64,000 nt of DNA from Bacteroidales bacterium (GTDB taxonomy: Bacteria > Bacteroidota > Bacteroidia > Bacteroidales > UBA3663): positions 4,061-68,060 of the forward strand of contig JAZQPJ010000034.1 in assembly GCA_045628525.1 (NCBI GenBank). Reading direction: 5' to 3'. Positions within the stretch are counted from its first letter, which is position 1; every line of letters begins with the position of its first letter. The notes beneath the pieces were generated by a model that was not told where the DNA came from, made no database searches, and saw only the letters and a program-made list of their open reading frames with translations. Positions 3 to 54,090 of this stretch are shown here, piece after piece. The position numbers were made by a program, and so were the translations under genes.

Positions 3-1634
3 CTGGCTCCTGTGACGTGGGAACTCATTGAACCTGTGGAGGGAAAGTACGATTTCTCTTCGCTTGACAATATCATCCAGGAGGCGCGACGGAACGACCT
101 GAAGGTGGTGGTGCTGTGGTTCGGCGCATGGAAGAACTCGATGAGCTGCTATGCGCCCGAGTGGTTCAAACGCGACGTGAAGCGTTTCCCTCGTGTGCAT
201 GATCGCAACGGCCTGCCGATGGAGGAGGCCTCTTCGCTCTCGGCCAATGTGCTGGAGGCGGACAAGCGTGTGTTCTGCCAGATCATGCAGCACATCAGGG
301 AGGTGGACAGCGAGGAGCAGACCATCGTGATGGTGCAGGTGGAGAATGAGATAGGCATGATCAAGGAGCCGCGGGACTACAGCAAGGATGCGACGAAGAT
401 GTATGAGAGCCAGGTGCCGAAGGAGCTGACAGAGTATCTGCTAAGTTTGAAGGGTTTGAAGGGTTCGAAGGGTTCGAAGGGTTTGAAGGGTTCGAAAGAT
501 CCGAATGGTTCAAAGGTTACTCTCAAACCCCTCAAACCTTTCAAACCCCTCAAGCTTAATAATCCTCGCTTAGAGATCTCGACCGACAAGGGCAGCTGGG
601 CAGAGCTCTTTGGCAACGACATGTATGCCGAGGAGATCTTCCAGGCATGGACCTATGCCGTCTATGTGGAGGAACTTGCCAAGGCGGGCAAGGCCATCTA
701 TGACCTGCCGATGTATGTGAATGTGGCGCTCAACAGCCGTGGCCGTAAGCCTGGCGAATACCCTTCGGCCGGCCCTTTGGCGCACCTCATCGACATCTGG
801 CATTGTGGCGCACCAAGCATCGCTGTCCTCGGCCTTGACCTCTACGACAAGGGTTATCGCGACTGGACGGCTAAGTATCATCTGCCTAACAATCCGCTCT
901 TTATCCCGGAAATCCGTCTCGAAGATCAGGATGCCATGCGTGCGCTCTATGCCTTCGGTCATCATGACGCGATGGGCTTCTGCCCGTTCTCGATCGAGGA
1001 TTATCCGCTGTATCTTAACTCTTCAAACTCCTCAAACTCTTCAAACTCCTCAAACTCCCTCGACCTCTCACTCGATGATCAGCTGAACGCGTTTTCTTCT
1101 AATAGTTCATCCCTTTCGCCTTTGGCAGCATCTTATAAATTGCTAAGACAAGCCGAGCCCTTGATCCTCGCACACCAAGGCACCGACGACATGGATGCCG
1201 TTATCCTCGACAACGACATGCGCGAAGCTGATATCCGTACGCCTGACGGCATCACCCTGCACGTAAAGCACAGCTACTCACTTGGTTGGGAGCCAGGCGC
1301 GCAATCGGACACTTGGCCGGAAGCTGCCTGCATCATCGTCCGTCAGGGCAAGGAGGATTATGTCGTGATCGGGTCGGGCGTGGTCATAACTTATGAGAAG
1401 AGTATGGAGGGGTTGAGGGGTTTGAAGGGTTCGAAAGGTTTGAGAGGTTCGAAGGGTTTGAGGGGTTCGAATGTTCAGATCGGCCTTGCCAAGTGCGAGC
1501 AAGTAGAATATGACAAGGATGGCAACATGCAGATCATCCGTCACCTGAGTGGCGATCAGACGCACCAGGGCCGTCACGTCCGCATCCCGGTAGGAGAGTA
1601 CGCGATCCAGCACTTCCGCCTTTACGAATACTAA
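3..1634 (+). CDS. Glycoside hydrolase, clan GH-A beta-galactosidase-like (GH35/42-type catalytic region with DUF5597-like C-terminal part); 5' end cut by the window edge
   Basis: The frame is open to the window start. It contains WELIEPVEGKYDFSSLD, VVLWFGAWKN and the catalytic-type VQVENEIG motif. Three repeat insertions interrupt it in frame. Confidence 0.6.
   Translation: MAPVTWELIEPVEGKYDFSSLDNIIQEARRNDLKVVVLWFGAWKNSMSCYAPEWFKRDVKRFPRVHDRNGLPMEEASSLSANVLEADKRVFCQIMQHIREVDSEEQTIVMVQVENEIGMIKEPRDYSKDATKMYESQVPKELTEYLLSLKGLKGSKGSKGLKGSKDPNGSKVTLKPLKPFKPLKLNNPRLEISTDKGSWAELFGNDMYAEEIFQAWTYAVYVEELAKAGKAIYDLPMYVNVALNSRGRKPGEYPSAGPLAHLIDIWHCGAPSIAVLGLDLYDKGYRDWTAKYHLPNNPLFIPEIRLEDQDAMRALYAFGHHDAMGFCPFSIEDYPLYLNSSNSSNSSNSSNSLDLSLDDQLNAFSSNSSSLSPLAASYKLLRQAEPLILAHQGTDDMDAVILDNDMREADIRTPDGITLHVKHSYSLGWEPGAQSDTWPEAACIIVRQGKEDYVVIGSGVVITYEKSMEGLRGLKGSKGLRGSKGLRGSNVQIGLAKCEQVEYDKDGNMQIIRHLSGDQTHQGRHVRIPVGEYAIQHFRLYEY
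445..557. repeat. Intragenic self-complementary element: six GTTYGAAGG 9-mers, a 23-bp centre, then four CTCAAACCY-type 9-mers (reverse complement of the left arm)
   Basis: Direct reading of the sequence. Period 9 keeps the frame, and it translates as SLKGLKGSKGSKGLKGSKDPNGSKVTLKPLKPFKPLKL. Confidence 0.85.
1019..1063. repeat. Intragenic 9-bp tandem repeat CTCYTCAAA x4-5 (C-strand orientation of the TTYGARG family)
   Basis: Direct reading; translates as NSSNSSNSSNSSNS. Confidence 0.85.
1407..1472. repeat. Intragenic 9-bp tandem repeat GARRGGTTY x7 (G-strand orientation), the inverted partner of 1019-1063
   Basis: Direct reading; translates as EGLRGLKGSKGLRGSKGLRGSN. Positions 1429-1446 are identical to 26459-26476. 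Confidence 0.85.
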
Positions 1635-1683: not shown

Positions 1684-3027
1684 TCATGATGCCTTGTTCT
1701 GATCGCTGATAGACAGCGCAATAATGATGGTCAAGCCGCCGCCATCGGTTTCTTCGGCCACGGCACTTCCACCATATTGCACGGCGATGTTCTTGACGAT
1801 GGCAAGGCCAAGACCAGTGCCACCTAACTTGCGGCTTCGCCCTTTATCGACGCGATAGAAGCGCTCGAAGAGGTGGGGGAGGTGTGCAGCAGGTACGCCT
1901 ACGCCATTGTCGCTGAACGTGAAGATGTAGTCAGATGACGTCATTGCAGCAGATACCGTGAAGCGTGTGGCACCCATGGCGTATGCCAGTGTGTTGTCGA
2001 AGATATTGCGAAACAGGGAGTAAATCAGGGCGGAATCGCCTTGCATGGGCATTGAACCAGGGAGCGAAAGCATATCGAGTTCAATGCCTTGTTCTGTGAA
2101 TTTGGCTTTTGTCTCGTCGGCGATGCCTTGCAGGATTTCTGCTGCATCGACTTTGGTCGTAGGGCGTACGATGGCGGCTTCGTCCAGACGTGTGAGCATG
2201 GACATGTCCTGTAGCAAGCGGCTCATGCGCTGGCTTTGCGCATAGCAGCGTGTGAGGAAAGACTGCCGTTGTTGGGCAGAAAGTGAATCGCCGGCAGAGA
2301 TCATCGTCTCAAGGTAGCCTTCGATGGCGGCAGCCGGCGTCTTGAGCTCGTGGGCGGCATTTTCGGTGAGCTGGCGCTTGATGCGACGCTTGTCCTCCTC
2401 GCTGCGATGCAATCTGAACCGAAGATAAAGCACCACGGCTATGAGCACGAGGATGCCTGCGGTGTAATAGAAAAAAGTGTAGTCGCGTTCGAGCGAAGAG
2501 GTAAGAGGGGCGGAATAGGGTACGGACGAGCGGATAATAAGACCCTTTCCCCAACCCTCCTCTGCACCCCTTCTATCCCCCGAACAGCGGGGGCAGAAAT
2601 CCGTAATCGGGAGGGAGTATTGGTTACTATCTATAGCGAAATAGGTTGCCGAATAGAAATACTTTTCACCATTGGTTTCGGACGCTCGCTTAATGTCAAA
2701 TCCAGAACCATACTGAAGGGCATCCTGAATCTCCTTGCGGAGAAGGTGGTTGCCCATTTTCTTTACATCTTTCTCCTGGCTATCATAGAGCACATTTCCT
2801 TCAGTGTCAATTATTGTGATGCGAAATGTGGTATCTATTTCTCCCTCCCCATTACGGGTGAGGGTTGGGGAGAGGGTCCTATAGTTATTGAGCTGCAGCT
2901 GCGAGTGCAGGATATCGACGCGAAACGCATGTTCACGCTGGTATTCATACACGCCGAAGCTGATGGTAAACAATGCCACCAGCAGCGTAACAATCAGAAA
3001 CAGATTATTTTTCGAACGAATATCCAT
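1684..3027 (-). CDS. Sensor histidine kinase (two TM segments, periplasmic sensor region, HisKA + HATPase_c)
   Basis: H-box ENAAHELKTP and G-box GGTGLGLAIVKNI. The start was chosen at MDIRSKNN (ATG 3027, overlapping the regulator's 3' end); ATG 3057 is an alternative. Confidence 0.85.
   Translation of the reverse strand: MDIRSKNNLFLIVTLLVALFTISFGVYEYQREHAFRVDILHSQLQLNNYRTLSPTLTRNGEGEIDTTFRITIIDTEGNVLYDSQEKDVKKMGNHLLRKEIQDALQYGSGFDIKRASETNGEKYFYSATYFAIDSNQYSLPITDFCPRCSGDRRGAEEGWGKGLIIRSSVPYSAPLTSSLERDYTFFYYTAGILVLIAVVLYLRFRLHRSEEDKRRIKRQLTENAAHELKTPAAAIEGYLETMISAGDSLSAQQRQSFLTRCYAQSQRMSRLLQDMSMLTRLDEAAIVRPTTKVDAAEILQGIADETKAKFTEQGIELDMLSLPGSMPMQGDSALIYSLFRNIFDNTLAYAMGATRFTVSAAMTSSDYIFTFSDNGVGVPAAHLPHLFERFYRVDKGRSRKLGGTGLGLAIVKNIAVQYGGSAVAEETDGGGLTIIIALSISDQNKAS
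2541..2617. repeat. C-tract/G-tract palindromic element (long form) inside the kinase sensor region
   Basis: GACCCTTTCCCCAACCCTCC...CCCCCGAACAGCGGGGG...CCGTAATCGGGAGGGAG. It is read through in frame. Confidence 0.75.
2841..2879. repeat. C-tract/G-tract palindromic element (short form, inverted relative to 2541-2617)
   Basis: The reverse complement reads GACCCTCTCCCCAACCCTCACCCGTAATGGGGAGGGAG, with the same termini as the long form. Confidence 0.75.
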
Positions 3028-3739
3028 AGCCGAACCTTGTGCGAATACATTTGCCATATTGTCCGATCTTCTTGCGCAGACGCGTGATGTTGACATCCAC
3101 CGTGCGGTCGAGCACGTACGCATCATTTGGCCAGATGCGTGTCAGGATCTCCTCGCGAGAGAAGACGGTGTGTGGGTGTTCCAGGAGCAAATCAAGCAGC
3201 TCATATTCAAGCTTTGTGAGCGTCACCTCCGTACCATCCACATGGCAGGTCTTTGCCAACGTATCGAGCACCAAACCCTCATAACTCACCTTATTGTCGC
3301 TGTTATTTGTTTCTTTGGCAGGGAGCTCTTTATCTTTTTCACTCTTTACCTCTTTCGCTTGCTGAGATGCAGCGCGGCGAAGCACCGCCTTGACCCTCGC
3401 CTTCACCTCACTCAATCTGAATGGCTTCGTGATATAGTCATCCGACCCCAGCGAGAATCCGTCCAGCACATCCTTCTCCTCGGTCTTTGCCGTGCAGAAG
3501 ATGATGGGGATTGCTGCCAACGCCGCATCCTGTTTCATCAGTTTGGCCACCTCAAACCCGCTGAGGCCCTCCATCATCACGTCGAGCAGCACTAGGTCAA
3601 ATGCCTCGGCCTTGAGCATGACAAGCGCTTCCTCGCCCGATGCCGCGGTCTCGACCGTGTACCCTTCCGTCTGGAGGTTATACTGCAGGATGTCGCAGAT
3701 GTCCTGCTCATCATCCACTATCAAAATTCGTTCGTTCAT
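3005..3739 (-). CDS. OmpR/PhoB-family DNA-binding response regulator
   Basis: Receiver domain (ILIVDDEQDI, LLDVMMEGLSG) and a winged-helix C-terminus (LTKLEYELL...VDVNITRLRKKI). The start was set at MNERIL because a -7 box lies inside the longer ORF. Confidence 0.9.
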   Translation of the reverse strand: MNERILIVDDEQDICDILQYNLQTEGYTVETAASGEEALVMLKAEAFDLVLLDVMMEGLSGFEVAKLMKQDAALAAIPIIFCTAKTEEKDVLDGFSLGSDDYITKPFRLSEVKARVKAVLRRAASQQAKEVKSEKDKELPAKETNNSDNKVSYEGLVLDTLAKTCHVDGTEVTLTKLEYELLDLLLEHPHTVFSREEILTRIWPNDAYVLDRTVDVNITRLRKKIGQYGKCIRTRFGYGYSFEK

Positions 3740-4570: not shown

Positions 4571-6253
4571 TTACTTGTTCACAGCAGCTTCTGCCTGCAC
4601 CACATTGATCGCATAGTCGCCTATCTTCTCGCATTCGGCAATGAAGTCGTTGAAGAAGGCGCCGAGGCGGTAGCTGTACTTGCCCTCGTTCACGGCGATG
4701 AGGTTCTCCTCGCGGCTGATGGTGCGCAGGGAGTTGATCTCGTTTTCTGCCTCGATGTTGTCGCGCAGATTGATTACCACGTGTTCAGGGTCGGTGATCA
4801 CCTGACGCATCTCATGCAGGGCGCGCTCGGTGAGGTCGAGCATCTGGGTCATCTGCATCTTCTGGTAGTCGGTGAAGTCGCTCGGCTCATTCTCACGCTT
4901 GCGCTGCAGGGTACGGCCGAGGTGGAACATCGAGTCTCCGATCGACTCCAGCTCGTCCACCTGTCGCAGCATCTGGGCGATGTGGTTCTTCGAGTAAGCC
5001 GAGAGCCTGCCCTCCGACACCTTGCGCAGGTAGCCGGCAATCTCCACCTCCATGTTGTCGGTGATCTGCTCGTAGTGTTCCAGTCGCTTGTATTCCTCGG
5101 CAAAGTCGCTCTCCTTCTTGGCCGAAAGGGCGCGGTTCACCATGTCGAGCATCTTCTGGCAACGCTCGGCCATGACACCCACCTCGTTGCGTGCCTGCAG
5201 GATGGAGAGCTCGGCCGTAGAGAGCAAGCCGCCGCTGATGTAGCGCAGACGTGTCTCCTCCTGCGTCTCCTTCTGAGGCAGCACGCGGCACACCAGCTGC
5301 TCAATCTGCTTGACGAAGCCAATCAATAACAAGGTGTTGAATACGTTGAATGCCGTGTGGAAGGCCGAGAGCTTGAAGAGGTCGTTGTTGCCAGCGCCCA
5401 TCACATGCTCCACGAACCATGACACGCCGTTGCAGAACGGATAGAACATCAGGAGCACCACCACCACGCCGAACACATTGAAGAACATGTGCGCGAGTGC
5501 CGCGCGTCGTGCCTGCGTGTTGGCGGTCAGGGAGGCGATGAATGCCGTGATCGTCGTACCGATGTTCTGACCCATGGCCAAAGCCGCTGCCTGCTCAAGG
5601 CCGAAGCCGGGGATCTGCATGTCGAACAGCATCAACGTGATGGCCATCGTGGCGGCCGATGCCTGAACGAGCATGGTAACCAATGCACCCACTACCACGA
5701 AAAGCAAGATTGTGAGGAAACCGCCATCGGCCACGCCTGCCAGCATCTGTGCCACCAGTTCGCCGATGTTCAGATCGGTGGCCGATTGCTGCAGGAAACT
5801 CAAGCCCATGAACAGGAACGAGAAGCCGAAGATGAACTCGCCGATCGACTTGCGATGCGAATTGCTGCTGAAGATGAGCGGAATGCCAAAGGCAAGCAAC
5901 GGCAACGCCAGGGCGGCGATATTGACCTTGAAACCGACAGCCGAGATGATCCATGCCGTCACCGTGGTGCCCACATTGGCACCCATGATCACGCCGATGG
6001 CTTGTGCCAGCGTCATCAATCCGGCATTGACAAACGAAACGACCATCACCGTGGTGGCCGAAGAGGATTGGATCAAGGCGGTCACGGCAATGCCCGTGAG
6101 AACACCCATCACACGATTGCGCGTCATGGCAGCCAGGATGCTGCGCAGACGATCGCCAGCAAATTTCTCAAGACCCTCGCTCATCGTCTTCATGCCGAAG
6201 AGGAAGAGTGCCAGGGATCCGATCAGGGAGAGGAGATTCAGAATTGTATCCAT
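4571..6253 (-). CDS. Na+/phosphate cotransporter family protein (NptA/YjbB type) with a C-terminal PhoU-like helical domain
   Basis: Duplicated Na_Pi_cotrans motifs (QSSSATTVMVVSF, GANVGTTVTAW; GQNIGTTITAF) and a long helical C-terminal half. Confidence 0.9.
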   Translation of the reverse strand: MDTILNLLSLIGSLALFLFGMKTMSEGLEKFAGDRLRSILAAMTRNRVMGVLTGIAVTALIQSSSATTVMVVSFVNAGLMTLAQAIGVIMGANVGTTVTAWIISAVGFKVNIAALALPLLAFGIPLIFSSNSHRKSIGEFIFGFSFLFMGLSFLQQSATDLNIGELVAQMLAGVADGGFLTILLFVVVGALVTMLVQASAATMAITLMLFDMQIPGFGLEQAAALAMGQNIGTTITAFIASLTANTQARRAALAHMFFNVFGVVVVLLMFYPFCNGVSWFVEHVMGAGNNDLFKLSAFHTAFNVFNTLLLIGFVKQIEQLVCRVLPQKETQEETRLRYISGGLLSTAELSILQARNEVGVMAERCQKMLDMVNRALSAKKESDFAEEYKRLEHYEQITDNMEVEIAGYLRKVSEGRLSAYSKNHIAQMLRQVDELESIGDSMFHLGRTLQRKRENEPSDFTDYQKMQMTQMLDLTERALHEMRQVITDPEHVVINLRDNIEAENEINSLRTISREENLIAVNEGKYSYRLGAFFNDFIAECEKIGDYAINVVQAEAAVNK

Positions 6254-6255
6254 AT

Positions 6256-6302
6256 TTTCAAATTACAGATTACAGATTTCAGATTACGAATTACAAATTA
6301 CG
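6256..6302. repeat. Heptamer tandem repeat (GTAATYT/GAAATCT x6-7 on the gene strand) filling the 5' leader of nptA
   Basis: The gene strand reads CGTAATTTGTAATTCGTAATCTGAAATCTGTAATCTGTAATTTGAAAAT-ATG. The 18-mer at 6256-6273 is identical to 57896-57913. Confidence 0.85.
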
Positions 6303-6895: not shown

Positions 6896-7114
6896 ATGTC
6901 AAAGCAAGAACAAGATAAGTCATATTTCGTTGCTTTCTGCATTGAGCAGTATAAGGCAGCAAAGGGAATGGACGGTGCAGACGTGGCGCAGCTGTTCTTC
7001 CAAAAAGGCGTGGCATCGTACCTCGCTGATAACTTTGATGTGCTTCATACTCAAAGCCGACAGTGGCTTATGGAGGAGATCGATGAATATCTGGAACAAA
7101 ACGAAGAGAAGTAA
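6896..7114 (+). CDS. DUF3791-family small helical protein
   Basis: 72 aa with the family-typical FVAFCIEQYK...YLADNFDVLHTQ. Its stop lies 1 nt before the next start. Confidence 0.75.
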   Translation: MSKQEQDKSYFVAFCIEQYKAAKGMDGADVAQLFFQKGVASYLADNFDVLHTQSRQWLMEEIDEYLEQNEEK

Positions 7115-7115
7115 A

Positions 7116-14874: not shown

Positions 14875-15160
14875 TGCAATAGTCCGACTTGGATCTGAGT
14901 CGGACTATTGCAGATCTGCAAAAGCATGTCGCAAGACAGAATATGTAATTGTAAATCTGCAGCAGTCCGACCTGGATCCAAGTCGGACTGCTGCGGCTCT
15001 TCAATAGTCCGACTTGATACCGTGTCGGACTGTCGCGCGTTTGCAATAGTCCGACTTGGTACCGTGTCGGACTGTCGCACGTTTGCAATAGTCCGACTTG
15101 GGTTCAGGTCGGACTGTCGCGCGTTTGCATTAGTCCGACTTGGGTTCAGGTCGGACTTTT
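14875..15160. repeat. Array of six palindromic units (AGTCCGAC-N10-GTCGGACT); the last four are in exact 42-bp register
   Basis: Left half-sites at 14881, 14964, 15006, 15048, 15090 and 15132. A conserved 16-bp linker GTCGCRCGTTTGCAAT separates units; the first two stems extend to 13-14 bp. Confidence 0.9.
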
Positions 15161-15255
15161 GTAAAACTTAAGTGCATTTAAACCTTCTAATACGATCATC
15201 GTCCTAAAGACAAAGAACGAAACTTGTATTATTAACACTTTAATACCTTAGAATT

Positions 15256-16047
15256 ATGAAGAAGATGTTCATGACCATGATGCTCGTCATCATCGCAGCC
15301 GCACAGGTATTCGCAATGTCAAACAGCAGCATCCGCCAGCACGCCCGTTTCCTGAGCGACCGCATGGCTTACGAGCTCGACCTGACTCCGTATCAGTACG
15401 ACGACGTGTATGAGATCAACTACGACTTCATCTACAGCATCGATCGCTATATGGACGATGTAGTTTATGGCTACCACGATGCCATCGAGCGCTACTATCG
15501 CTTGCTTGACTATCGCAACGAGGATCTGCGCTTCGTACTCAATGCGCGCCAGTATGCCAAGATGCTGACCCGCGACTACTTCTATCGTCCGGTGTATAGC
15601 AATGGCCGGAGCTGGTACTTCCGCATCTATACGATCTACAGCAACCGTAACTTCTTCTATTACGATGCACCAACCGTGTATAAGAGCTATCGCGGCGGTC
15701 ACTCGCAGGGCAGCTACAACCACAACTACTACAACCAGCGCCATCATCATGACAGCTACGGCCAGCAGTCGGCCATCCACGGCTCAAGCAGCTACCAGGA
15801 GCATGGTCGCAACGACTTCGGCGTAAACCGTCGCGAGCGTGGCAACAAGCACCAGAACGAGATCAACAACTACAACAACCACAACCAGCACAACCGCACC
15901 CAGGATCCTCGCTACCAGGATAATAGCGGCAACCACAATTCGCCACAGATCAATAACCGTGGGCAGCAGGGTGGCCAGGGCAAACCGCAGGACAGCAAGC
16001 AGGGCAATAGCCAGCAGGGCGGCGGTGCCAAGTCGGGAAGAAGATGA
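15256..16047 (+). CDS. Secreted protein with a conserved Tyr-rich N-terminal domain and a His/Asn/Gln/Gly-rich tail (paralog of 31673-32719)
   Basis: Signal peptide MKKMFMTMMLVIIAAAQVFA. About 125 aa align with the other copy (DRMAYEL.LTP.QY, MDDVVYGY, LDYRNEDLR). Confidence 0.8.
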   Translation: MKKMFMTMMLVIIAAAQVFAMSNSSIRQHARFLSDRMAYELDLTPYQYDDVYEINYDFIYSIDRYMDDVVYGYHDAIERYYRLLDYRNEDLRFVLNARQYAKMLTRDYFYRPVYSNGRSWYFRIYTIYSNRNFFYYDAPTVYKSYRGGHSQGSYNHNYYNQRHHHDSYGQQSAIHGSSSYQEHGRNDFGVNRRERGNKHQNEINNYNNHNQHNRTQDPRYQDNSGNHNSPQINNRGQQGGQGKPQDSKQGNSQQGGGAKSGRR

Positions 16048-17004: not shown

Positions 17005-17038
17005 TTTGATAAGATTTATGATGTTAGTGGATGATTGT

Positions 17039-17079
17039 TTCGAGGTTTCGATAATTCGAGGTTTCGATGCTTCGAGGGG
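17039..17079. repeat. 16-bp tandem repeat TTCGAGGTTTCGATRM x2.5 in the LacI-SDR spacer
   Basis: Direct reading; related to the TTYGARG family. Confidence 0.8.
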
Positions 17080-24953: not shown

Positions 24954-26447
24954 ATGGCAAAAGAATTGAACAAAATGACCAAGCGCTCCGATGACTATTC
25001 GAAGTGGTATAATGACTTGGTCGTAAACGCTGACCTCGCCGAGCAGTCAGCTGTGCGTGGCTGTATGGTCATCAAGCCTTATGGCTACGCTATCTGGGAG
25101 AAGATGCAGAGCATCCTCGACGCCAAGTTCAAGCAGCAGGGCGTACAGAACGCATACTTCCCACTCCTCATCCCTAAGTCATACCTCTGCCGCGAGGCCG
25201 AGCACGTTGAGGGCTTTGCCAAGGAGTGCGCCGTTGTTACCCACTACCGCTTGAAGAACGATCCTGACGGCAATGGTGTTGTTGTCGATCCTGAGGCTCG
25301 ATTGGAGGAGGAGCTCATTGTGCGTCCAACCTCAGAGACCATCATCTGGTCAACCTATAAGAACTGGATCACCTCGCACCGCGACCTGCCAATCCTCTGC
25401 AACCAGTGGTGTAACGTGATGCGTTGGGAGATGCGTACCCGCATGTTCCTCCGCACCTCTGAGTTCCTCTGGCAGGAGGGACACACCGCTCACGCCACCA
25501 AGGAGGAGGCTGGCGAGATGGCTATGAAGATGATCAACGTGTATGGCGACTTTGCCGAGAACTACATGGCTGTGCCTGTGATCAAGGGTCCTAAGTCGCC
25601 AAACGAGCGCTTCGCCGGTGCCCTCGACACCTTCACCATCGAGGCTATGATGCAGGATGGCAAAGCCCTCCAGGCAGGTACTTCGCACTTCCTCGGCCAG
25701 AACTTCGCCAAGGCTTTCGACGTAATGTTCACCAATAAGGAGAACAAACAGGAGTATGTTTGGGCAACCTCATGGGGCGTTTCGACCCGACTGATGGGTG
25801 CGCTCATCATGACCCACTCTGACGACAACGGCCTCGTGCTGCCTCCAAAGCTTGCTCCAATTCAGGTTGTCATCGTGCCTATCTACAAGAAGCCAGAGGA
25901 GCTCGCTGCTCTCACCGAGCGCATCCAGCCATGGGTTGACGCACTCCGCGACAAGGGCGTGAGCGTGAAGTACGACGATGCTGACAACAAGAAACCAGGT
26001 TGGAAGTTCTCTGAGTACGAGCTCAAGGGCATTCCAGTACGTATCGCCATGGGTCCTCGCGACCTGGAGAACGGCACGCTCGAGATCATGCGTCGTGACA
26101 CACTCGAGAAGGAGACCATCTCGCAGGAGGGCATCGTAGAGCACGTTGTGACTCTGCTCGACGACATCCAGGAGGGCATCTTCCAGAAGGCCAAGGCCAT
26201 GCGCGACGGCTATATCCGCCGTGTTGATACCTGGGACGACTTCAAGACCGAGATCGAGAAGGGCGGCTTCCTCCTTTGCCACTGGGACGGCACCACCGAA
26301 ACAGAGGAGCGCATCAAGGCCGAAACCAAGGCTACCATCCGCTGCATCCCATTCGAGGCACAGGATCCTGCCGACCTCGAGCCAGGCTTCGACATTCTCA
26401 CCGGCAAGCCATCTGCACGTCGCGTGCTGTTTGCTCGTTCATACTAA
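24954..26447 (+). CDS. proS: Proline--tRNA ligase (archaeal/eukaryotic-type class II)
   Basis: 497 aa with [23 protein letters not shown] and a C-terminal ProRS-C1 domain. Confidence 0.95.
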
Positions 26448-26455
26448 GGGAAAAT

Positions 26456-26541
26456 AGAGTTCGAAAGGTTTGAGAGATTTGAAAAGTATGTATTTGATAA
26501 CACTCTCGAACATTTCGAACTTCTCAAACTCTCAGATTCAA
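26456..26541. repeat. Intergenic palindromic element of the TTYGARG family, exactly filling the proS-pnuC spacer
   Basis: The left arm GTTCGAAAGGTTTGAGAGATTTGAAAAG faces the right arm CTCTCGAACATTTCGAACTTCTCAAACTCTCAGATTCAAA. The 18-mer at 26459-26476 is identical to 1429-1446. Confidence 0.85.
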
Positions 26542-27333
26542 ATGAGAAATAAATATACCACCCTTTTGAAGCTCACATTTCGCAGCCTCAATTGGTTTGA
26601 GATCATGCTGCTGCTGGCGATTCTGTCGCTGGCAGTGGCATCTTTCGTCATTAAGGGATCGTTCACGATCAATTCTGTCATCGCAGCTGTGGCCGCCATC
26701 TTAGGCGTTTTCTGCGTCGTGCTGGGTGCCAAGGGTTCGATGGCCAACTGGCTGTTTGGTATCGTTGAGGCATTCCTGCATATTTATATATGTTTTTGCA
26801 CGCACATCTACGGCGACTTTCTGCAACGATTGTTCTACAATCTGCCCATGCAGTTTGTGGGATGGAAGACGTGGGGCAAACGCAAGCGTCATGACAACTC
26901 GGGCACCATACATACCCGTTACATGACGTGGCGCCAGCGTGGCATCACGTTGCTCTCGGTCATCGTGGGAACGTTCGTGCTTGGCGAATTCCTCATTTAT
27001 TTCGGCCCTTGGATGATTCAAGCCATTACCTCGTTGTTCGATTCGATGGGATGGGGCGAGGTGTCGTTCAAGACGCTCAAGATGGATTATGACACGCAGT
27101 CGCAGCTCTGGCTCGACTCGTTCACCACCGTTATGAGCATCATCACGATGATCGTTTCGGTCAAGGCGTTCGTCGAGCAGTGGTATATGTGGCTCTTCAT
27201 CAACGTGGCATACATCGCCATGTGGCTTATGTCCGATTCTGACTTCTCGTTCATGACCGTAGCCAAATACAGCGTCTATCTCATCAATTCGTTCTACGGC
27301 ATCTATATGTGGAACAAGTTGAGCAAGAATTGA
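26542..27333 (+). CDS. pnuC: Nicotinamide riboside transporter PnuC
   Basis: A multi-TM protein with family-typical NWLFGIV and W..W motifs. The start was set at MRNKYTT. Confidence 0.85.
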   Translation: MRNKYTTLLKLTFRSLNWFEIMLLLAILSLAVASFVIKGSFTINSVIAAVAAILGVFCVVLGAKGSMANWLFGIVEAFLHIYICFCTHIYGDFLQRLFYNLPMQFVGWKTWGKRKRHDNSGTIHTRYMTWRQRGITLLSVIVGTFVLGEFLIYFGPWMIQAITSLFDSMGWGEVSFKTLKMDYDTQSQLWLDSFTTVMSIITMIVSVKAFVEQWYMWLFINVAYIAMWLMSDSDFSFMTVAKYSVYLINSFYGIYMWNKLSKN

Positions 27334-39737: not shown

Positions 39738-39975
39738 GTTCTTCGATTCGAGACGTCGAAAAGCATGTCCGGAATCTTGGCGAAGGAATTCGAGTTGTCG
39801 AATAGTTTGTCCGGACCTTGTGACAAGGAATTCGAGCCGTCGAAAAGGCTGTCTGGATTCTTGGACAAGGAATTCGAGCCGTCGAAGAGCCTATCCGAAA
39901 CCTCAGACAAAGATTTCGAGCCGTCGAAAAGCATGTCATAGAACTCTGGCAAAGATTTCGAGACGTCGAACTCTA
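39738..39975. repeat. Tandem array of about 5.6 units in exact 42-bp register (ATTCGAGCCGTCGAAAAGSMTGTCYGGAWYCTTGGMCAAGGA)
   Basis: TTCGAG anchors at 39747, 39789, 39831, 39873, 39915 and 39957. Each unit carries TTCGA-N4-TCGAA and CCTTG/CAAGG mini-palindromes. Confidence 0.9.
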
Positions 39976-53652: not shown

Positions 53653-54090
53653 AGCGGTGGCATGTCGAAAGAGATGGAAAAAGCGCTGAAAATGTGCTGA
53701 AAGTTCGCAAATCCATTAGGAATGCCTCTGCAAGTGTGCGGAAGGGCGGAAAATGATTTTTTGCGGCTCAGCAGATCTGCGGAGGGTTTCCAAAAGTTTT
53801 TTTTGCGGCTCCGCACGTTTGCGAAAGCTCTACAAAAAGTTTTTCTGTGACTCTGCAAATCTGCGGAAGCTCTCCAAAAGTTTTTCCAAGGCTCAGCAAA
53901 CTGTCGGAGCTCAGAAAATGTTTTAGCGAAGGTTTTGCAGGTTTGCAGAGGCATTCCTAAAGATTTTGTGTCCGCTCCGCATGTTTGCATCACCTTTTCG
54001 ATGCGATTTGCAGATTCAGTGCGAGCTCGCATCACCTTTTCGATGCGATTTGCAGATTCAATGCAAGTTCGCGTCACTTTTCCTGATGCT
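53653..54090. repeat. Degenerate tandem array of about 10 units holding a 40-42-bp register; the last 2.5 units are near-identical (GCATCACCTTTTCGATGCGATTTGCAGATTCARTGCRAGYTC)
   Basis: Unit anchors at 53695, 53737, 53778, 53820, 53862, 53904, 53944 and 53986/53987, then 54029 and 54071. The final unit runs into the 3' end of the DUF2851 gene. Confidence 0.8.

Follow-up and report, generated by a model that had tools for sequence, protein, structure and literature searches.

The feature under study lies at the junction between proS and pnuC in a 64-kb stretch of Bacteroidales DNA, which was analysed as a whole and is referred to as the window. The two genes are co-directional, and the junction is laid out as follows.

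24954..26447, + strand: proS, prolyl-tRNA synthetase (Pfam tRNA-synt_2b, HGTP_anticodon and ProRS-C_1), stop codon TAA at 26445-26447
26448..26541, + strand: proS-pnuC intergenic spacer, 94 nt
26458..26521, + strand: predicted stem-loop, 18-bp stem with one internal mismatch and a 26-nt loop region; 26458-26476 pairs with 26503-26521
26459..26485, + strand: left arm, three G-rich units GTTCGAAAG GTTTGAGAG ATTTGAAAA (HMM E = 4.9e-5)
26486..26502, no strand: non-repeat AT-rich centre or loop GTATGTATTTGATAACA, 17 nt, containing an ATG at 26488 in frame with pnuC
26503..26541, - strand: right arm, about four C-rich reverse-complement units CTCTCGAAC ATTTCGAAC TTCTCAAAC TCTCAGATTCAA (HMM E = 6.2e-5)
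26542..27333, + strand: pnuC, nicotinamide riboside/NMN transporter family (Pfam NMN_transporter, E = 6e-39)

Homologues of ProS reached identities of up to 96%, and the N-terminus of PnuC read from the ATG at 26542-26544 aligns with that of its relatives. Both arm sequences quoted in a first-pass annotation of this DNA are present exactly as given, and the palindromic hairpin that it placed in the spacer is real, with arms that are complementary at 89% over 19 nt (26458-26476 against 26503-26521) and at 70% over 27 nt. The same annotation had the repeat exactly filling the spacer. This is correct for the downstream end, where the last, degenerate unit of the right arm (TCTCAGATTCAA) abuts the pnuC ATG, but the repeat part extends only from 26459 to about 26541, and neither the first ~10 nt of the spacer (GGGAAAATAG) nor the 17-nt centre consists of repeat units.

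The sense RNA of positions 26440-26560 folds with a predicted energy of -30.3 kcal/mol (z = -4.0), a stability that none of 200 shuffled sequences attained. The antisense strand gives a weaker fold (z = -1.8), and the DNA of 26448-26545 reaches -14.2 kcal/mol (z = -2.6). G-C pairs are scarce in the stem, where A-U and G-U pairs are abundant. The 20 nt preceding the pnuC AUG are unpaired in the predicted fold.

Both arms are built from a 9-nt unit, GTTYGARRG, which occurs in tandem on either strand and which we write as the family (GGTTYGARR)n. The window holds three further copies of this family, all within one gene.

12..1634, + strand: host gene of copies 1-3, encoding a DUF5597 / GH35-42-like glycosidase (assigned from Pfam, homologues and alignment; its 5' end lies outside the window)
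445..555, + strand: copy 1, six to eight G-rich units, a decayed centre and about four C-rich units, translated in frame as LKGLKGSKGSKGLKGSK...LKPLKPFKPLK
1017..1058, - strand: copy 2, C-rich units CTCAAACTC/CTTCAAACT, translated as SNSSNSSNSSNS
1397..1471, + strand: copy 3, about eight G-rich units, translated as GLRGLKGSKGLRGSKGLRGS and holding an exact 18-mer at 1429-1446

Tandem Repeats Finder reported the intragenic arrays with a period of 9 at 445-516 and 522-553 (in opposite orientations), 1017-1058 and 1397-1471. A profile HMM made from the window's units returned 12 hits at E <= 0.026, which fall at the four loci, followed by a next hit at E = 1.6 (64-kb window); the earlier count of four copies was therefore right, with nothing to add to it. 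The 18-mer GTTCGAAAGGTTTGAGAG, previously pointed out as common to the spacer arm and the glycosidase gene, is found exactly at 1429-1446 and at 26459-26476 and corresponds to two adjacent 9-nt units. When up to three mismatches were allowed, it gave seven matches against 0.04 expected. Around the shared 18-mer, similarity in the flanks continues only at the level of the unit. Thus, the spacer hairpin and the translated glycosidase segments do form one family, as had been proposed, in the sense that they share the same 9-nt tandem unit on either strand. The description of a discrete element was not borne out, as the number of units per array varies between 3 and 23 and the copies lack conserved ends, terminal inverted repeats and target-site duplications.

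Copy 1 of the glycosidase gene is itself palindromic, and its RNA hairpin (-53.8 kcal/mol, z = -5.9) is stronger than that of the spacer copy. Because an intragenic copy folds more strongly, the hairpin is a property of the family and not proof of a dedicated intergenic function. In a poor AlphaFold2 model of the glycosidase (mean pLDDT 52), inserts 1 and 3 appear as low-confidence coil; insert 3 interrupts a confidently modelled beta-sandwich, which bears on loop placement but is suggestive only. The domain annotation of the window also contains a weak Pfam 'Collagen' match.

We then compared the glycosidase gene with its relatives. Among the homologues, only one protein (P0121, 92% amino acid identity) carries the inserts, and 13 others, with identities of at most 81%, have short native loops at the insert positions. 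At the nucleotide level, the orthologous gene of L157 (91% identity) has three arrays at identical sites, shorter by exactly 18, 9 and 27 nt (2, 1 and 3 units), and that of L158 (84% identity) has no arrays and 13-21 unrelated native bases in their place. Comparison of filled and empty sites showed that a few native bases were replaced and revealed no target-site duplication. At site 2, the array-free orthologue contains the unit-like sequence GCTTCGAAT, and no seed was present in the empty orthologous sites corresponding to sites 1 and 3 or to the proS-pnuC spacer. The glycosidase arrays, with head-to-tail units and whole-unit differences from L157, have the properties of a minisatellite or VNTR, and the fact that they differ by whole units from those of a 91%-identical relative clearly points to slippage being at work. 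Downstream of the glycosidase gene lies a two-component system in the window; in L157 this place is taken by an AsnC-type regulator and in L158 by a small multidrug-resistance gene. With three downstream neighbours in three genomes, the gene or its surroundings appear to be rearranged or mobile.

The proS-pnuC gene pair is conserved in the relatives retrieved through ProS and PnuC, with the following spacers.

L131, L136: 0 nt, no content
L001 (ProS 96%): 12 nt, no content
L181 (ProS 93%): 16 nt, no content
L006 (ProS 92%): 24 nt, no content
L002-5 (ProS 89%), L129: about 60 nt, an unrelated CTCCCCCTCCC/GGGAGGGGGAG hairpin
L124, L125, L127: 67-79 nt, other hairpins; L124 has GCCCGGAAGGGC twice
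L126, L128: 117 nt, an analogous 'word palindrome' of CACGAATT / AATTCGTG words
L182 (ProS 94%): 179 nt, another, unrelated hairpin

None of these spacers (0-179 nt) contains TTYGAR units. A sizeable spacer hairpin is missing from all of the four closest relatives (ProS 92-96%) but L182. In ~318 kb of related Bacteroidales DNA, the family was found only in the orthologous glycosidase gene of L157. These comparisons indicate that the spacer copy is a very recent, lineage-specific gain. As the ancestral junction would have been close to zero (about 0-24 nt), any gained sequence fills the spacer, and the observation that the repeat does so is trivial.

The neighbouring pnuC-hisB junction is similar in L124, with (GTCAAATA)n, and in L128, with (TAAGGGATTC)n...(TATCCCTTAA)n, both of which end at the ATG. 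The word arrays of the relatives lie at 2880-2998 in L126/L128, at 3783-3935 in L128 and at 3736-3815 in L124. The operon junctions of the clade are hypervariable, with word arrays or palindromes filling either the proS-pnuC or the pnuC-hisB spacer up to the ATG.

Other repeats were observed in the window. A second dispersed repeat, the heptamer (ATTACAG)n, occupies three loci: 6262-6301, just upstream of the start of a Na/Pi cotransporter gene (4571-6253, minus strand); 12354-12376, inside a porin O/P gene (11453-12538), where it forms 3 units (21 nt); and 13458-13483, inside a PHO4 transporter gene (12578-14848). Four arrays with a 42-nt period (14964-15157, 39746-39970, 53757-53912 and 53987-54082) differ in sequence between loci, and the first of them, located in the 14848-15256 spacer, comprises ~4.6 units, each with a hairpin AGTCCGAC-N10-12-GTCGGACT. 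A period-8 array, (GTTTCGAG)n at 17037-17077, fills the ~80-nt spacer of two minus-strand genes encoding a LacI-type regulator (stop 17084) and an SDR (start ~17004). Its core is similar to that of the nonamer family, but the family HMM did not match it, and it was set apart as a separate word array. Downstream of a gene ending at 16047, the segment 16096-16159 consists of a GC hairpin (CCCCCTCGC...GCGAGGGGG) followed by (TTGTCATGA)n. Repeats of 12 and 33 nt (ATGGCGGTAA.../CGGTAATAATGG...) occur at 10750-10882 within a Schlafen/AlbA_2-HATPase_c_4 gene (9636-11081). This gene belongs to a possible defence or mobile islet (7038-11081), which also includes a DUF3990 protein matching the PADLOC candidate PDC-M13/M10 (E = 3e-54), an unannotated ORF and a protein with a gag-type aspartyl protease domain. 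Among the relatives, L135 has (TAATGCA)n at two nearby loci (2956-3036 and 4664-4724, with 11.6 and 8.7 copies), and L138 has (ACTCGTCT)n twice in tandem (866-988). We rejected the idea that the clade is unusually rich in short-period arrays, as the density of non-family arrays per 100 kb is 11-14 for the window and its relatives and 12.7 for non-Bacteroidota controls.

To place the family in other genomes, we used a scan with GGTTYGARGGGTTYGARGG over one genome per species, which gave at least 117 loci. About 70 two-unit matches are expected by chance in 596 Gb, so single two-unit matches in high-GC genomes mean little. Among the matches listed, arrays of 4-23 units occur on several contigs of the same MAG, and their hosts are rumen Bacteroidales, Saprospiraceae, Chitinophagales, Lentimicrobiaceae and some Acidobacteriota MAGs. 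At least 3-6 array contigs per genome were found in RGIG7607, RGIG7573, RUG465, SGB_1238, Saprospiraceae MAG-361 and Chitinophagales UWPOB_CHIT8. Viral contigs gave 22 matches, nearly all of them two-unit chance matches, and there is therefore no sign of a phage vector.

Within long ORFs among the genomic matches listed, the unit is used in at least five frames: the commonest encodes PSN, and GSK/GLK, PQT/LRT, LKP/FKP, VRR and GFE also occur. Of the six frames of the unit, only one (GTT-TGA) holds a stop codon. Intergenic arrays in the listed set usually abut a stop codon, which in L047 is the TGA of the first unit, and some of them have a period of 8 instead of 9. The flanks of 28 copies are unrelated and define no conserved ends, and the majority of the listed arrays have no inverted partner. 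The pattern fits a DNA-level repeat filtered by protein tolerance. The family seems to be undescribed: literature retrieved with the unit sequences consisted of primers or unrelated text, and keyword searches of the literature were likewise empty.

Where inverted arrays do occur, their order is fixed. C-rich units follow G-rich ones in all eight independent palindromic loci among the matches listed (12 pairs; two-sided binomial probability 0.008), which belong to Bacteroidales, Cytophagaceae, Saprospiraceae and Acidobacteriota. In every one of these loci, the G-rich strand runs 5'->3' toward the centre of the dyad. Such a polarity would arise if both 3' ends of a break were extended, if a G-rich 3' end folded back and was copied, or if the arms were the terminal repeats of a transposon. 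Fold-back of the G-rich strand through G-T wobbles was considered as a cause, but the DNA ensemble energies of the G-rich and C-rich strands (-5.9 vs -4.0, -12.8 vs -8.6 and -6.0 vs -2.0 kcal/mol) make the G-rich strand only slightly more structured, which is weak support at best. The invariant polarity is a testable clue to a directional DNA-synthesis mechanism.

The first-pass annotation had regarded the window's arrays as dispersed copies of one element rather than products of local slippage. In favour of a common source, the unit pair that makes up the shared 18-mer is rare, being seen once among 314 adjacent pairs in the arrays of other genomes (matches listed); with ~15 adjacent pairs in the glycosidase arrays, the probability of a chance 18-mer match is about 0.05. 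Moreover, the window's arrays share an unusually high proportion of A at unit position 8 (0.39), which favours copying or homogenisation within the genome over independent origin. Distances in unit composition were 0.56 within genomes and 0.97 between them (permutation p = 0.0005), although this genome-specific composition is partly confounded by genome G+C. Among the matches listed, Acidobacteriota arrays contain only TTCGA, and those of Saprospiraceae and Chitinophagales only TTTGA. The exclusion of slippage did not stand, given the whole-unit differences from L157, and the choice between copies and slippage was framed too sharply. We conclude that the arrays within one genome are related by copying or homogenisation and were then resized by slippage.

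Several known repeat systems resemble the family in part. Cyanobacterial STRRs (short tandemly repeated repetitive sequences) are short tandem units dispersed at many loci of a genome, mostly in non-coding DNA, and are heptamers of heterocystous cyanobacteria. The nonamer arrays likewise place the same short unit in tandem at multiple loci of one genome, four of them in the 64-kb window, which shows a further likeness in its dispersed heptamer (ATTACAG)n. The nonamer arrays differ in that the unit has 9 nt and occurs in Bacteroidota and Acidobacteriota, in that the arrays are often translated in frame, and in their inverted pairs of fixed polarity. The nonamer family is thus an analogue of the STRRs and not a member.

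REPs carry a GTAG/CGTC head; they are single palindromes of 20-40 nt, lie strictly outside genes and are associated with RAYT transposases. REP/BIME sequences are described as imperfect palindromes in the spacers of co-directional genes that form mRNA stem-loops and are strain-specific, with termination and mRNA stabilisation as proposed roles (PMC3733652). The palindrome in the proS-pnuC operon spacer, with its stem-loop, is similar to these repeats of Enterobacteria and Pseudomonas. However, the nonamer family is composed of tandem 9-mers, three of its four copies in the window are translated inside the glycosidase gene, the spacer arms have no GTAG/CGTC head, and the window encodes no Y1 transposase/RAYT. 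Rickettsia palindromic elements (RPEs) are palindrome-capable repeats found both between genes and in frame inside unrelated genes (PMC10969869), as the nonamer arrays are. While RPEs are ~150 bp long with a conserved sequence and encoded peptide, the nonamer family consists of 9-nt arrays of variable length.

Taking these observations together, we consider it likely that the spacer feature is a recently gained copy of the dispersed (GGTTYGARR)n family and is a DNA-level repeat, not a dedicated RNA signal. The family has been seeded at scattered sites in genes and spacers, and its arrays change in length by whole units. A point that counts against this reading is that simple slippage does not account for the presence of the same unit in distant phyla. 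Seeding may occur by copying from another array or by templated addition of units at DNA 3' ends. The two arms would then result from synthesis of the G-rich strand toward the centre from both sides, or from fold-back copying. Survival in coding DNA is explained by the 9-nt unit, which keeps the frame, and by the absence of stops from five of its six frames. On the proS-pnuC transcript, an 18-bp stem-loop would then end 20 nt ahead of the pnuC AUG. It would put an end to any tight coupling of the two formerly adjacent cistrons and may slightly shield the 3' end of the upstream mRNA or dampen read-through. As three of the four closest relatives have no sizeable hairpin, and L131 and L136 have no spacer, we rate the element as near-neutral; it is probably dispensable repeat DNA with at most a mild effect on the mRNA.

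A selected RNA stem-loop, acting as a partial terminator or attenuator or as a stabiliser of the proS 3' end and thereby setting the proS:pnuC ratio, is in our estimate a rather doubtful alternative. Bacterial interspersed palindromes do act as terminators or stabilisers in some operons, and such a role would agree with the sense hairpin being strong (z = -4.0) where the antisense is not (only z = -1.8), with the unrelated hairpins in the same spacer of L002-5, L124, L125, L127 and L182, and with the tendency of intergenic arrays elsewhere to abut stop codons (matches listed). Its details do not resemble a Rho-independent terminator, which we rejected: the stem has few G-C pairs, the loop region has 26 nt where 3-8 nt would be expected, the stem is followed by CUUCUCAAACUCUCAGAUUCAAAUG with no U tract, and the terminator scan was negative. 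Termination of proS transcripts, raised by the first-pass annotation, is accordingly unsupported. Scans of the spacer (26448-26541) found no terminator-like and no sigma-70-like site, nor did it contain the Bacteroidetes promoter TTTG-N17-23-TAnnTTTG. Rfam gave no hit at gathering score in the whole window, including any pnuC-associated riboswitch, and in E-value mode the spacer matched only sub-threshold miRNA-type hairpins, the best at 27.4 bits against a cut-off of 60.5. A selected function is also hard to reconcile with the distribution of the hairpin, as the closest relatives L001, L181 and L006 have spacers of 12, 16 and 24 nt without a sizeable one, that of L182 is unrelated, and the spacers of the more distant L131 and L136 measure 0 nt. 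Finally, a stronger hairpin of the family lies inside an ORF, and most of the listed arrays have no inverted partner.

We regard it as improbable that the arrays have separate origins, each through local slippage at a chance seed, with the unit shared by convergence on a stop-poor and partly self-complementary sequence. Whole-unit differences between strains are what slippage would leave, the unit-like GCTTCGAAT at site 2 of the array-free orthologue could have served as a seed, period-8 variants occur among the intergenic arrays, and short-period arrays of other words are common (~11-24 per 100 kb) in all groups tested. Against this, four arrays of one unit lie within 64 kb while ~318 kb of relatives have none outside L157, rare unit variants are common to the window's loci, and the empty sites 1, 3 and spacer have no seed. 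Independent slippage does not predict the fixed polarity of inverted arrays.

A foldback-type miniature transposable element, with tandem 9-nt transposase-binding units as its terminal inverted repeats and mobilised in trans, is very unlikely. The polarity fixed in eight of eight listed loci is as expected of terminal inverted repeats, and the copies are dispersed and lineage-specific. However, there are no target-site duplications or conserved termini, a few native bases are replaced and not duplicated, the arms are unequal and highly variable in length, and most listed copies are arrays of one orientation. In addition, genes for a transposase, a RAYT or a reverse transcriptase are absent from the window.

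Head-to-head telomere-repeat fusions, interstitial telomeric repeats and Drosophila foldback elements are eukaryotic and need telomerase or a foldback transposase. The nonamer palindromes share their layout, a (G-rich unit)n array ahead of a (C-rich unit)m array in constant order, and likewise occupy sites that relatives have empty, with no target duplication. We know of no enzyme of the telomerase or foldback-transposase type that acts on bacterial chromosomes. The DRT10 (UG17) reverse transcriptase and its ncRNA produce long single strands of tandem repeats whose period is exactly 9 nt, GAATCATTG (PMC12632851); a 7-nt period, AGTAATA, and a subtype UG17-B in Bacteroidota have also been described (bioRxiv 10.64898/2026.04.29.721553). 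These 7- and 9-nt tandem repeats are comparable to the repeats seen here, and their strand asymmetry matches the fixed polarity of the nonamer arrays. Unlike the latter, DRT10 products are protein-primed, extrachromosomal ssDNA with different motifs, their chromosomal insertion is unreported, and the 64-kb window contains no transposase, RAYT, RT or SLATT gene. It is a long shot that the nonamer arrays, and perhaps (ATTACAG)n, are chromosomal scars of telomerase-like addition by a UG17/DRT10-type or other repeat-synthesising RT. In such a scenario, the RT would add repeats to the 3' ends of broken DNA, or its repeat cDNA would be taken up by repair, and genes and spacers would be left with 'interstitial telomere-like' arrays. 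Extension of both break ends would yield head-to-head palindromes with the G-rich strand pointing to the centre. DRT10 RTs, described in 2025-26 and present in Bacteroidota, are a candidate enzyme to test for the origin of the polarity; if true, this would be a new route for defence reverse transcription to rewrite bacterial genomes and proteins.

It is scarcely credible that the right arm is coding, with pnuC starting at the ATG at 26488 in the hairpin loop and gaining 18 residues (MYLITLSNISNFSNSQIQ): the pnuC frame has no stop as far back as 26470 and S-N-x is the commonest frame of the listed intragenic arrays, but C-rich arrays are stop-free in all three frames, so the open frame is automatic, and the N-termini of the relatives' PnuC align from the ATG at 26542. 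Gene callers may over-extend pnuC by 18 codons to ATG 26488.

The spacer feature is real and forms part of a dispersed repeat family; a role as a regulatory device is unlikely. Provided that it behaves as set out here, the family would be a Bacteroidota counterpart of the STRR, REP and RPE repeats. It would then explain why the operon spacers of gut and rumen Bacteroidales are hypervariable and why otherwise conserved enzymes contain low-complexity PSN, GSK and LKP inserts, which can mislead gene calling, domain annotation and MAG assembly. It would also explain polymorphism in unit number, which could be used as a strain marker.
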